A DNA stretch of 49,629 nt from NCBI GenBank assembly GCA_002170775.2, contig NHIP02000003.1, positions 221,776-271,404 of the forward strand, given 5' to 3'. Shown in pieces: positions 8,551-34,506 of the stretch. The notes under the pieces are model-generated. The model saw only the letters and a program-made list of their open reading frames with translations, had not been told where the DNA came from and did not search any database. Each line of letters starts with the position of its first letter. The stretch's first letter is position 1. This DNA comes from Euryarchaeota archaeon TMED192. Its GTDB lineage: Archaea > Thermoplasmatota > Poseidoniia > Poseidoniales > Thalassarchaeaceae. The position numbers and the translations under genes are program-made.

Positions 8551-8624
8551 GCACGAGTGGCAGAGTAGCTATGCAACGGACTGCAGATCCGTGTACCCGG
8601 GTGCAAATCCCGGCTCGTGCTCCA
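8551..8624 (+). tRNA. tRNA-Cys (GCA), CCA encoded, no intron
   Basis: Cloverleaf read directly: acceptor GCACGAG/CTCGTGC, D stem GCA/TGC, anticodon stem ACGGA/TCCGT with loop CT-GCA-GA (anticodon 8583-8585), T stem CCGGG/CCCGG, discriminator U, then CCA. Confidence 0.95.
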
Positions 8625-31047: not shown

Positions 31048-32640
31048 ATGGCCAAGCATAGGGCGGGAAATCGACGAATCATTAGCATTAGCATACCGGA
31101 AGATCTAGCGATCAAACTTGATCGTAGAGTTGGAAAGGGACGTTCGAAGGGTCGATCTGCGACCGTATCTCGTTTGATAGAACAGAGTTTGGAAGGTAAT
31201 ATCTCCCCGCCCACCTCAGTTCCAGCTGCTCCTCTGAATGGAAGTTTGCCTGGAAACACTCGAAAAGAAATTGACTCTCTTGGTGTAGTCGATGTTCCCG
31301 AAAATGCATACTATGGGGCCCAAACGGCTAGATCGCTTGTCAACTTCGATATTGGTTCGGACATCATGCCGCGGTCGATGATACGAGCTTTTGGTCTCCT
31401 GAAACAGGCTGCTGCAAGGGCTAATGTCGAATTGGGGGATCTAGATGAAGAAATAGGAAGTCTGATTTCTAGAAGTTGTGAAGAGGTCATTTCAGGTTCA
31501 CTAGACGCACATTTTCCACTTCGTATATGGCAAACAGGTTCGGGAACTCAGACAAATATGAATGCCAACGAGGTTGTCTCTAATCGATCGATAGAAATGT
31601 CAGGAGGAGTCATAGGTTCGAAAGTCCCGGTTCATCCCAATGACCACGTAAATCGTGCTCAATCGAGCAATGATACGTTTCCAACTGCGATGCACATAGC
31701 AGCAGCGGAAGAAATCCATCATCGATTGATACCGGCGGTCAGACATCTCTTGGAACAATTGGACGACCGGCGGAGAGCGTTCGATCACATTGTTAAGATC
31801 GGCAGAACGCACCTCATGGATGCCGTTCCTCTTACTCTCGGTCAAGAGTTCTCAGGATATGTCTCAATGCTCAATGCAGATGTTAGTCGCTTAATCCGGG
31901 CGAAGGAGTCTTTGCTCGCTTTAGCGATCGGAGGGACTGCCGTTGGAACAGGGCTGAACACAAGAAGGAAATTCTCGGGATTGGTATGTGATCAAATTTC
32001 TGAAGAGACGGGATTATCATTCTACCCTGCTGAAAATAAATTTGCTGCGCTGGCAGGCCATGATGCTCTTCTGGAAGCTTCAGGGGCGATGGCAGGCCTT
32101 GCTTCCACGGTCATGAAGGTCGCGAATGATATCCGATGGATGGGATCTGGGCCCAGATCCGGATTCGGTGAATTGTCATTACCAGAGAATGAGCCCGGCT
32201 CCAGCATAATGCCTGGAAAGGTGAATCCTACCCAGGCAGAAGCCATTACGATGGTTGCATGCCAAGTTATTGGTAACCACACAGCGGTGACTGTGGGAGC
32301 GAGCCAGGGTAATTTTGAGTTGAACGTGTACAAGCCGATGATAATACACAATGTGTTGCACTCCTGCAGGCTTCTGACAGACTCTTGCATTTCCTTTGCA
32401 GATAAATGCGTGATCGGCCTAGAGGCCAATGAAGATAGGATCGGCGATTTAGTTGAAAGGTCCCTGATGCTAGTGACAGCATTGAATCCTCACATCGGAT
32501 ACGATAATGCAGCCAAAATAGCAAAGTATGCTCATGAAAAGGGGATTACTCTGAAGGAATCTGCCATAAAGTTGGACATGGTCACGGCAGAGGAATTTGA
32601 TAATTGGGTCAGACCAGAAGATATGATAGGGCCGAAATGA
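31048..32640 (+). CDS. fumC: Class II fumarate hydratase with an N-terminal ribbon-helix-helix domain
   Basis: FumC motifs [29 protein letters not shown] and [13 protein letters not shown]. Residues ~9-48 ([16 protein letters not shown]...[14 protein letters not shown]) form an RHH pattern. Confidence 0.95.
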
Positions 32641-32712
32641 CGGTGCTAAGCATATCACTCAGAAAGACGGTCATAAGACACTCCTTCATCCGAAATGATT
32701 GATAGTCTGTTT

Positions 32713-33345
32713 GAGGGGACCACAAAGCGTCCGATTGGACAAGGTGGGAGCAACAGGGGGCTTGCCTATGGGGGAGCGAACCCCCTGCTGACTCCGCGGT
32801 TGGGGTTCACCCGGGCCCTAAGGCCCGGGTGTTCCCGGGTAGATGATTTGGGCGCTCGTTGTCCGCCTTCACCATTCGCCGATTAGGACGAAGTCCCCTT
32901 CGTCTTCACCGTATCCGCTTTTAGTCCTCAGATAATGTCCCTGATTTCCTCAGCGTCCGATGCCAGTCCTCCACGGATCTCTCCGCTCTCGTCCCTGGTG
33001 CGTTTCTTTCCCGTGTTTTACTCCGGTTCTTTCCCGCACTACGCTTCTAGGATTGTCTCCTCCCCCTTCTGCATTGCACCTCTTCGGGATAGTTTTCTGA
33101 TTCGGTTTGTGTTTTCCCCCCGAAGGGTTCGGTTGCGTTTTCCTCAGTTTCCTCCTCAAATTTGCTCTTCTTTCTTGCGTCAGAATTGCTCTTTTGTGGT
33201 TCTCCCGCATCCTTGTCACCCACAAGCAACAAGGTGTGTCCCCGACTTTTTACGGCCGGTTTCACCGCTCCGATCTCTTGGATCGGTTTTTGTGGCCCGC
33301 GGGAGGTGCCGAAGCCCTCCCACACCACTCCCCCGGAGCGGCAAA
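32713..33345 (-). ncRNA. Putative large structured non-coding RNA (~630 nt), family unrecognised
   Basis: No credible CDS in the 780-bp gap. At least seven hairpins, two cUUCGg loops, G-U pairs that work only on the minus strand, a long-range stem (33289-33298 with 32717-32726), purine-rich linkers, and a TATA-like element upstream. Ends are approximate. Confidence 0.65.
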
Positions 33346-33366
33346 GTCAACAGGGTAAGGGGTAGT

Positions 33367-33380
33367 CCATAAACCTTTCC
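33367..33380 (-). promoter_or_regulatory. Candidate BRE/TATA promoter for the putative ncRNA
   Basis: Minus strand GGAAAGG-TTTATGG lies about 30 nt upstream of the first hairpin (G33342). Confidence 0.4.
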
Positions 33381-33423
33381 TTGATATTGGAGCAGTCCAC
33401 TGGAAATGGGGGTCGATAACCCC

Positions 33424-34506
33424 TTATTTCTCTTCCAAGGAATTGTTCTTATCTCCAAATCTTAACATTCTAAGGCGTGCTCTAATCAAAGAGTCGTCGT
33501 CTTCTGAAAATTCTGATTTAGTGATTCTCCTCTTCAGAACATTCGTTTCCAAAAGGAGGATTTCTCCGTTTAGACAGCCCAACACTGTTCTATCCAAATG
33601 GCTGTGCACTACCGTTATCTCGTTGGTATGAGTCCAGTTCATTCGCATTTTCCCAATAGAGATCACGCCGGATAATTCGGGTTTCTTCATAGCTAACAAA
33701 GTCATCTCACCAGTGCTAGTGAGATATTGTGGAATGCCTTTCAATTGCTCGAGTAGGGGTTCTGTGTTCTCAGCACCCTCATTTTGATTATATGTGATCC
33801 ATCTTCCATCATGCATGAATCCTGCCAAAAACACGCGTTTCACTGTATCTATAATCTTGCCATTCTGATCAATCTGGATTGCTTGGAAATCTGAAGTTGT
33901 GAAGGACATGTGGTTGTCGGCAGATGTAGACGAACGTGATATTGGGGCTCTAGGAGTGCCTTCGAGATGGTGCAAGACATCATTCCCGGTTTGTATGGTA
34001 TATATTCCTGGTTGGGGTCTCCCCAACCCCAAGATGCAGCCTTGACCAAAGGCGTCTAATGTCCATGCTTTCGATTTCAAGGGGATCGATTGTTCGACTA
34101 TCCCCTTGCGTGGTTCGATTCGCATAATTCGGCATGCCACGTAATCTTCGATTTCAATCTCGTAAACAGAAGAAGTAACCCATAGCGATTGGCCGTCAAA
34201 TACAACGAGATCGCATGCACCGTCTACCGGGATTGACCAAATTAACGTGCCATCATCGGAATTAACCGCTGTTATGGATGCCCCGTGCGCAATCGCTACG
34301 ATCGCATCGGCGAATGCGATAGACGAGACAGATGGTTCGAGATTGATTGACCAGAGAGGGGCTCCATCTGAAACAGACCAAGCGGATGCTATTCCTTCAG
34401 TATCTCCGGCGATGAAGGACTCGGCGTTCTGTTCGATGGTTGTGACGGAAGATTTGAGAGACCTGACCAATGAAGACAAATCTGAAAGACGAGCGTTGCT
34501 ATTCAT
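33424..34506 (-). CDS. Beta-propeller (PQQ-like/WD40-like) repeat protein
   Basis: Repeated blade motifs AWSVSDGAPLW, AVNSDDGTLIW and VLGCLNGEILL. Confidence 0.75.
   Translation of the reverse strand: MNSNARLSDLSSLVRSLKSSVTTIEQNAESFIAGDTEGIASAWSVSDGAPLWSINLEPSVSSIAFADAIVAIAHGASITAVNSDDGTLIWSIPVDGACDLVVFDGQSLWVTSSVYEIEIEDYVACRIMRIEPRKGIVEQSIPLKSKAWTLDAFGQGCILGLGRPQPGIYTIQTGNDVLHHLEGTPRAPISRSSTSADNHMSFTTSDFQAIQIDQNGKIIDTVKRVFLAGFMHDGRWITYNQNEGAENTEPLLEQLKGIPQYLTSTGEMTLLAMKKPELSGVISIGKMRMNWTHTNEITVVHSHLDRTVLGCLNGEILLLETNVLKRRITKSEFSEDDDSLIRARLRMLRFGDKNNSLEEK

Follow-up and report, generated by a model that had tools for sequence, protein, structure and literature searches.

A stretch of 49,629 nucleotides (nt) from the genome of Euryarchaeota archaeon TMED192 (order Poseidoniales, family Thalassarchaeaceae; contig NHIP02000003.1, positions 221,776 to 271,404), hereafter the window, contains at positions 33342-32743 of its minus strand what is very probably a single-copy gene for an independently transcribed, noncoding and highly structured RNA of about 600 nt, whose family is not in Rfam. 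The attributes that define a stand-alone gene of this kind were observed together: a promoter, base-pair covariation beyond controls, no coding signal and occurrence in RNA libraries. A first-pass annotation, made from the sequence alone, had proposed a stand-alone large noncoding RNA of ~630 nt at this place. The RNA itself was upheld, with a length of ~600 nt rather than 633 and a 3' end near 32743 instead of 32713. The checks suggested along with that proposal all agreed with it: no Rfam family reached its cut-off, homologues could be collected and their paired positions covaried, no coding signal was detected, and the stretch was present in marine RNA libraries of four studies. All coordinates below are those of the window, given in the direction of the RNA; RNA positions n1-n600 correspond to window position 33343 - n.

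The RNA body extends from GCCGCUCC to the last conserved motif, GCUCCCACC, which terminates at 32743. The boundaries of this conserved block were identical in 37 homologues, and RNA-library contigs covered 32745-33341. The minus strand is purine-rich and enriched in G+C here (plus-strand AT skew down to -0.63, GC up to 0.62). Its minimum free energy was -251.2 kcal/mol, with a z-score of -7.48 relative to shuffles versus -2.75 for the plus strand. For the analysis of covariation, alignment A2 was used, comprising 37 distinct full-length homologues of 471-775 nt delimited by the shared 5' and 3' motifs. The tested model of 127 pairs in 32 helices combined the output of RNAalifold with hand-placed 5' helices. 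The fraction of paired cells was 88.1%, versus 74.6% in shuffles and 32-44% in slid controls. Changes on both sides were found in 96 of the 127 pairs, versus 63.1 in shuffles and 29-45 in slid controls, and the covariation score was 0.380 versus 0.172 and at most 0.101, respectively. None of 500 shuffles reached any of the values observed for this model.

Signs of protein coding were missing. Variable columns of the alignment of the window's genus were distributed over the three codon phases as 66, 59 and 64 of 200 each, that is, with no codon periodicity, and every indel within the genus was 1 nt long. Open reading frames (ORFs) of 91-145 codons are present on both strands of the locus; the longest ones lie on the pyrimidine-rich antisense strand, and their frame and position shift among 22 homologues. 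A Pfam search of the local ORFs gave no match, and none of the four was present in a collection of 15 billion proteins.

The predicted promoter (33380-33367), recognized from sequence and conservation, consists of a purine-rich GAAAGG resembling the B recognition element (BRE) followed by a TTTAT box, with GAAAGGTTTAT at 33379-33369. The centre of the box precedes the first RNA base, G 33342, by ~29 nt; the TATA-like box that had been placed ~30 nt upstream is real, and it is conserved. A GAAAnnTTTA(T/A) block was kept in 22 of 22 aligned homologues, and AAAnTTTAT boxes were also found in the sister family (loci L067-L079, L134, L151 and L152). The distance from the GAAAGG-TTTAT box to G 33342 matches the established spacing of archaeal BRE/TATA elements.

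Fourteen RNA-library runs from four marine studies each contained at least half of the sampled words of the stretch. The contigs of four runs, one per study, span 32745-33341 with word depths from hundreds to more than 10,000; the runs were chosen for containing the RNA stretch, and the depths sum contigs of related organisms. Loose contig ends in the variable middle match modules of other genera, and relatives are therefore also present in the same RNA libraries. On the 5' side the contigs end at 33338 (runs X3 and X5), 33341 (X13) and 33325 (X1), and on the 3' side at 32745 and 32751 (X3 and X5), 32792 (X13) and 32797 (X1). For X13, loose letters that we take to be sequencing adapter adjoin the contigs on either side. 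These positions give a weak hint that the contig ends mark the ends of the transcript. In the four runs, 32200-32744 (the end of the downstream fumC gene) and 33342-33900 (the upstream beta-propeller gene) had zero cover except for a depth of 26.6 in the bin 33340-33396 of X13; the empty parts were not counted as evidence. In X3 and X5, the summed word depth at 33055-33168 was 10- to 100-fold above that of the rest of the RNA; this peak may represent a segment common to many strains and not processing.

Screening against Rfam 15, whose 4227 models also cover large ornate RNAs, introns and ribozymes, revealed nothing on the RNA at gathering score. At E-values up to 10, the RNA region gave seven weak matches, all far under their cut-offs, and at E-values up to 0.1 six homologue loci gave two sub-threshold matches, one of them on the RNA itself.

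The RNA has a nested multi-domain model comprising the 5' hairpins P1 and P2, two more hairpins, Domains II and III, a run of hairpins and a 3' terminal hairpin. All hairpins listed in the first-pass annotation were present, most of them with compensatory changes in homologues. P1 (33342-33324) is a sequence-invariant 8-bp hairpin, GCCGCUCC-NNN-GGAGUGGU, formed in 22 of 22 diverse sequences of both families; its closing pair is C-G in 19 of them, U-A in two and C-A in one. The same 5' strand can alternatively pair at long range with 33272-33264 (CGGAGCGGU; helix 1), where C-G changes to U-A in 6 of 37 homologues; P1 and its alternative have one compensatory column each. P2 (33323-33299), GGGAGGGC-UUCG-GCACCUCCC, forms helix 2, with 6 of 10 pairs changed on both sides. 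The next proposed hairpin, CCGAUC/GAUCGG (33286-33270), exists in the window's genus, while other genera use a hairpin in a shifted register. Hairpins P4 (33259-33242) and P5 (33235-33210) correspond to helices 3-5, with 13 of 15 pairs changed on both sides; in P5, formed by CCUUGUUGC and GUGACAAGG, this applies to 7 of 8 pairs.

Domain II (33208-33084, helices 6-12) is closed by a long-range helix, GCGGGA/UCCCGA, with 5 of 6 pairs changed on both sides. It contains the purine-rich module GACGCAAG, a CUGA/UCAG helix and a CCC-UUCG-GGG hairpin (33127-33118) in which all three pairs changed on both sides. This domain is deleted in L017 and expanded in L023 and L026. Domain III (33080-32959, helices 13-21) is closed by GGUGC/GCAUC and is marked by near-invariant columns; it includes a GUGCG/CGCAC helix, a GCGGA-GAGA-UCCGU hairpin and the near-invariant segment CCGUGGAGGA. 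The following series (32956-32800, helices 22-29) comprises ACGC/GCGG with UCAGG/CUGAG, ACGAAG/CUUCGU, GGU..GGCG/CGCC..AUC, and CCGGG../..CCC around a 10-bp GC stem, along with the conserved segment UCUACCCGGG. Both-side changes were found in 6 of 6 pairs of GACGAAG/CUUCGUC (32903-32888) and in 5 of 8 pairs of the 10-bp stem (32829-32809).

The 3' module (32797-32745, helices 30-32) consists of an invariant GCGGAG, a covarying hairpin of 17-22 bp with a C-rich internal loop and an invariant CUCCCA, with GGAG/CUCC pairing at the base. Its long stem (32788-32753) has 7 of 8 pairs changed on both sides. The module folded in this way in 15 of 15 representatives caught by a pattern (11 genera of the window's family and three of the sister family), with two further loci uncaught, and the stem sequence changes completely yet stays paired in all 15. 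Across both families, two elements are sequence-invariant, P1 and the base of the 3' hairpin (GCGGAG ... CUCCCA).

Between these ends, gain, loss and duplication of internal hairpin modules, often capped by UUCG or GNRA loops and connected by adenine-rich linkers, bring the length of the homologues to 334-936 nt. The RNAs of genus g13 (L023:1261-2035 and L026:49-802) carry at least three tandemly dispersed purine-rich units of ~32 nt (…GGACGCAAGGAAGGGGAAGGAAG…), which accounts for their length of 754-775 nt, and a unit of ~55 nt is duplicated in L134 of the sister family. The RNAs of genus g2 (L029:1474-1984 and L030:914-1523) have a second P1-like hairpin, CCGCUCC-NNN-GGAGUGGUG, ~60 nt past the first one. 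Its presence hints that the alternative partner of P1 in other genera arose by duplication.

Several further pairings were considered. Two end-to-end helices given by RNAalifold (n20-27 with the 3' CUCCCAC, and n41-49 with n540-549) were not adopted, since other genera and the sister family do not conserve their 5' strand, both compete with the covarying P2, and in all 15 folds the 3' CUCC has GGAG as its partner, closing the base of the 3' hairpin. The first-pass annotation had closed the molecule by pairing GGGCCACAAA (33298-33289) with UUUGUGGUCC (32726-32717). Both strands exist, but neither shows a compensating change, the 3' one falls past the final conserved motif of the RNA, and other genera retain only GGCCC there; the helix is thus unsupported, as is its 3' strand as a part of the RNA. 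The C-rich loop of the 3' hairpin was also considered as a candidate partner of the G-run n276-282 in a pseudoknot; genus g4 is without this G-run.

BLASTN matches to the stretch occurred in 27 of 36 further genomes from the window's family (f1) and in none of 24 genomes from two other families; between genera, the matching pieces were 105-360 nt long with 66%-86% identity. Within the window's family, a model of the 5' domain with 152 positions (R1) matched 56 of 74 genomes; it had no match elsewhere and missed four genera of this family and the whole sister family. Diverged relatives have only the first hairpins in common. A 58-position model of P1 and P2 built from both families (R2) gave matches in 71 of the 74 genomes in the window's family, with every sampled genus represented, in 16 of 74 genomes of the sister family and in neither of two genomes of another family. 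In one of the three genomes missed in the window's own family (L019), the gene is cut by a contig end. Eleven of the 16 sister-family matches were counted as real, namely in 9 of 10 genomes of genus g17 and both genomes of g20. Reading of the sequence confirmed the two g20 loci and one in g17 (L134), and the other g17 matches rely on their E-values, 1e-9 to 1e-15. Of the five remaining weak matches, four (two of three in g16 and both in g19) were rejected because they had no promoter and no 3' module and looked coding; the third g16 match is partial. A 334-nt form, the shortest homologue found, was located by pattern in genus g25, and thus the sister family has members in three genera (g17, g20 and g25). 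The 3' pattern was not found in five genomes of g14, g15, g16 and g18, which does not mean that the RNA is absent there. A 5' pattern allowing three mismatches was too noisy, as a control pattern matched as well. Outside the order, 126 genomes gave one weak match (E 6e-5), and the RNA was not convincingly found.

The gene is single-copy as a rule. In genome G072 (genus g13, contamination 3%), the 5' domain was matched at full score on two different contigs (G072:C34:72764-72821 and G072:C42:2940-2997), which could reflect a strain mixture in the bin or a true duplication. A 1.7-kb contig binned in genus g17 of the sister family (L077, G328:C220) carries the 5' motif with zero mismatches, and the part that was read closely resembles the RNA and flanks of the window's genus; the contig is probably mis-binned.

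The RNA gene lies between the beta-propeller gene and fumC in every checked genus of both families except g25; in L130 and L133, which are without the RNA, these two genes are directly adjacent. No transposase, reverse transcriptase or Cas gene was found among the neighbours of the RNA gene. The simplest reading is that the RNA was present in the common ancestor of the two families and was later lost in some lineages.

In the window, the upstream gene (33424-34506, minus strand) encodes a beta-propeller-like protein of 360 aa with a weak PQQ_2 match. Downstream, the RNA adjoins the 3' end of the convergent fumC (31048-32640, plus strand). From its first ATG, the fumC frame has 530 aa, and the Lyase_1 domain starts only at residue 81, so the true start is probably a later ATG. 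An imperfect palindrome, GGAAGAGAAAU ... AUUUCCAGUGG, enclosing a GGGG..CCCC hairpin (33436-33397, minus strand), surrounds the stop codon of the beta-propeller gene (33426-33424) upstream of the RNA promoter. It is conserved across the two families (L015-L027 and L067-L079), and most genera, including g17 of the sister family, have a perfect version, CAGUGGAAAU...AUUUCCAGUG. It might terminate the upstream gene or be bound by a regulator. Just beyond the conserved 3' end and outside the RNA contigs, a short hairpin, GUCC-AAUC-GGAC, occupies 32740-32729 on the minus strand. Other genera have there a different yet self-complementary sequence (GUAC..GUAC or GUACCG..CGGUAC), making up a covarying short hairpin that is possibly a terminator or trailer element. 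The only Rfam match of the window at gathering threshold is a tRNA gene at 8551-8621 (plus strand, 57.2 bits).

The chances are about even that this RNA is, or contains, Tan1 (Thalassoarchaea ncRNA 1), in which case its existence is already in print and only the full length, architecture and range are new. Passages of Hou et al. (2016, Sci Rep 6:35470, PMC5069720) describe Tan1 as a 229-nt RNA of marine group II archaea that was highly abundant, fifth in RNA-Seq on marine group II contigs, had a "complex secondary structure" and no known function, was absent from Rfam, and had five BLASTN homologues with 75%-79% identity, all in metagenomes of Ca. Thalassoarchaea. Insofar as these passages describe it, Tan1 shares with the RNA reported here the occurrence in marine RNA libraries, the restriction to one marine group II lineage, the absence from Rfam and a high degree of structure. 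Its abundance, complex structure and homologues confined to Thalassoarchaea speak for identity, and its identities may be compared with the cross-genus values given above. When GC-rich intergenic runs of the window's genome were screened crudely, no other strongly folding candidate of ~230 nt emerged, but the screen is leaky, as its ORF mask hides even the RNase P and signal recognition particle (SRP) RNAs. Against identity, Tan1 is 229 nt long and was drawn from six sequences, versus ~600 nt here (334-936 across genera) with even the shortest homologue exceeding it, and our RNA has long-range helices and defined modules at its 5' and 3' ends, occupies a conserved locus and extends into a second family. 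The two were compared by description, the Tan1 sequence being placed in a figure or supplement of that paper, and the equation of the window's family with "Thalassoarchaea" is itself our inference. The published length of Tan1 could reflect the mapping of reads to a divergent reference.

Apart from Tan1, no other description of the RNA was found in the literature. The word "undescribed" used in the first-pass annotation is uncertain given Tan1. The RNA family is new to every curated resource searched, and a portion amounting to less than half of the RNA may have been noticed once before in the literature. If the RNA is Tan1, the gain is smaller, and still includes the correction of the length from 229 to ~600 nt together with the architecture, the locus and a wider range.

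As to function, we tentatively propose, as one possibility short of a probable one, that the RNA provides one or more proteins with a stable scaffold or a multivalent platform for binding. The invariant terminal hairpins would serve protein recognition and protection of the ends, and the repeated purine-rich single-stranded segments together with the modules capped by GNRA and UUCG loops would provide binding or packing surfaces. The lack of the RNA in several genera suggests an accessory role rather than a core housekeeping one. Invariant ends, an expandable modular body and loss in several genera fit a ribonucleoprotein scaffold or platform better than a compact catalytic core.

It is unlikely that the RNA acts alone, as a ribozyme or as a self-assembling RNA-only particle of the kind formed by bacterial ornate RNAs. 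Its size of 334-936 nt, the many helices capped by GNRA and UUCG loops, the adenine-rich linkers with nested long-range helices, and the strictly invariant single-stranded segments would suit such a role; features of this kind characterize large ribozymes as well as OLE, GOLLD and ROOL. The latter three are large ornate noncoding RNAs of bacteria, several hundred nt long and lineage-restricted, with many covarying helices; they are represented in Rfam, and their function could not be deduced from sequence. The RNA resembles them in size, number of covarying helices, absence of coding capacity and restriction to a lineage. However, Rfam scans of the window and six homologue loci brought up no ribozyme or ornate family that is similar in sequence or structure, and this RNA is archaeal, with an archaeal promoter and a fixed locus between housekeeping-type genes and with no adjacent partner gene. 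A cryo-electron microscopy preprint (10.1101/2024.12.08.627333) is related to this comparison. The large lineage-specific deletions and duplications of modules make it less likely that a catalytic core under tight constraint extends over the entire molecule. The RNA is also missing from several genera. Should the RNA nevertheless be self-acting, which we doubt, it would represent the first archaea-specific class of large ornate RNAs, in a group that ranks among the most abundant ocean archaea, with the invariant terminal hairpins and single-stranded purine segments as the active or assembly core.

Several points weigh against a structured RNA gene with a scaffold role, which we still prefer. 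The shuffle control of covariation ignores phylogenetic relatedness; the slid control keeps it and was still far below the observed values. The fold is partly ambiguous, both in P1, which has a rival in a long-range helix, and in the pairing of the invariant CGCGGGCCAC segment. No protein partner emerged, and the beta-propeller gene, the only conserved neighbour, adjoins fumC also where the RNA is missing (L130 and L133), so its linkage to the RNA may be positional only. The depths suggest an abundant RNA, but contig word depth reflects expression poorly, and the exact ends were placed by contig ends and conservation and not by raw reads.

It is very improbable that the RNA is a cis-acting part of a neighbouring mRNA, such as a 3' untranslated region or terminator of the beta-propeller gene or of fumC. 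It does lie directly downstream of the 360-aa gene ending at 33424, on the same strand, and this arrangement is kept across two families. Against this stand the conserved BRE/TATA-type box at the right distance from a conserved first base, the RNA contigs, which among those listed begin at 33338-33341 with no join to the upstream gene, and the L130 and L133 loci, where the two protein genes are adjacent in the absence of the RNA.

Slightly less probable still is a very divergent member of a known family: a paralogue of RNase P or SRP RNA, a group I or II intron, or a guide RNA of a mobile element. The only resemblance pointing this way was a weak match to whalefall-1 (RF01762; 22.6 bits versus a cut-off of 37), an environmental-only motif with function unknown in the description of Weinberg et al. 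(2010, PMC2864571). The match fell on two adjacent 5' hairpins of a single sister-family homologue, L134; the motif itself has two short hairpins side by side, like P1 and P2. Besides its low score and its restriction to one homologue, RF01762 exceeded its cut-off in none of 151 genomes of the order, and the comparable weak matches listed were all on contigs other than that of the RNA gene, with no recurrence at the RNA locus; the resemblance was therefore treated as chance. RNase P and SRP RNAs are likewise abundant, stand-alone and structured archaeal RNAs of a few hundred nt with GNRA-capped helices, but the locus matched neither model. The archaeal RNase P RNA (RF00373, gathering score 84 bits) is encoded elsewhere in the same genome, at G000:C12:11967-12264, with 242.5 bits, and the archaeal SRP RNA (RF01857, 96.5 bits) at G000:C5:21088-21395 with 143.3 bits, which bears out the earlier view that the RNA is neither of them. 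Since it is missing from many genomes of the order, the RNA is no universal housekeeping RNA. Its single-copy, syntenic gene with no transposase, reverse transcriptase or Cas neighbour also speaks against a member of a known family.

A small or low-complexity protein encoded on either strand, for which the open frames and the pyrimidine-rich antisense strand with its few stop codons might speak, can practically be dismissed given the missing codon periodicity, the 1-nt indels, the shifting frames, and the lack of Pfam and protein-collection matches.

Very few large structured RNAs have been found whose function is unknown and, to our knowledge, none is archaea-specific beyond rRNA, RNase P RNA and SRP RNA. 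The RNA described here belongs to an uncultivated order of marine archaea and occurs in seawater RNA libraries of several studies. Its invariant ends and modular expandable core offer handles for experiments. It would provide a new family for RNA annotation pipelines and a lineage marker in metatranscriptomes, and would account for reads discarded by gene-centred analyses.

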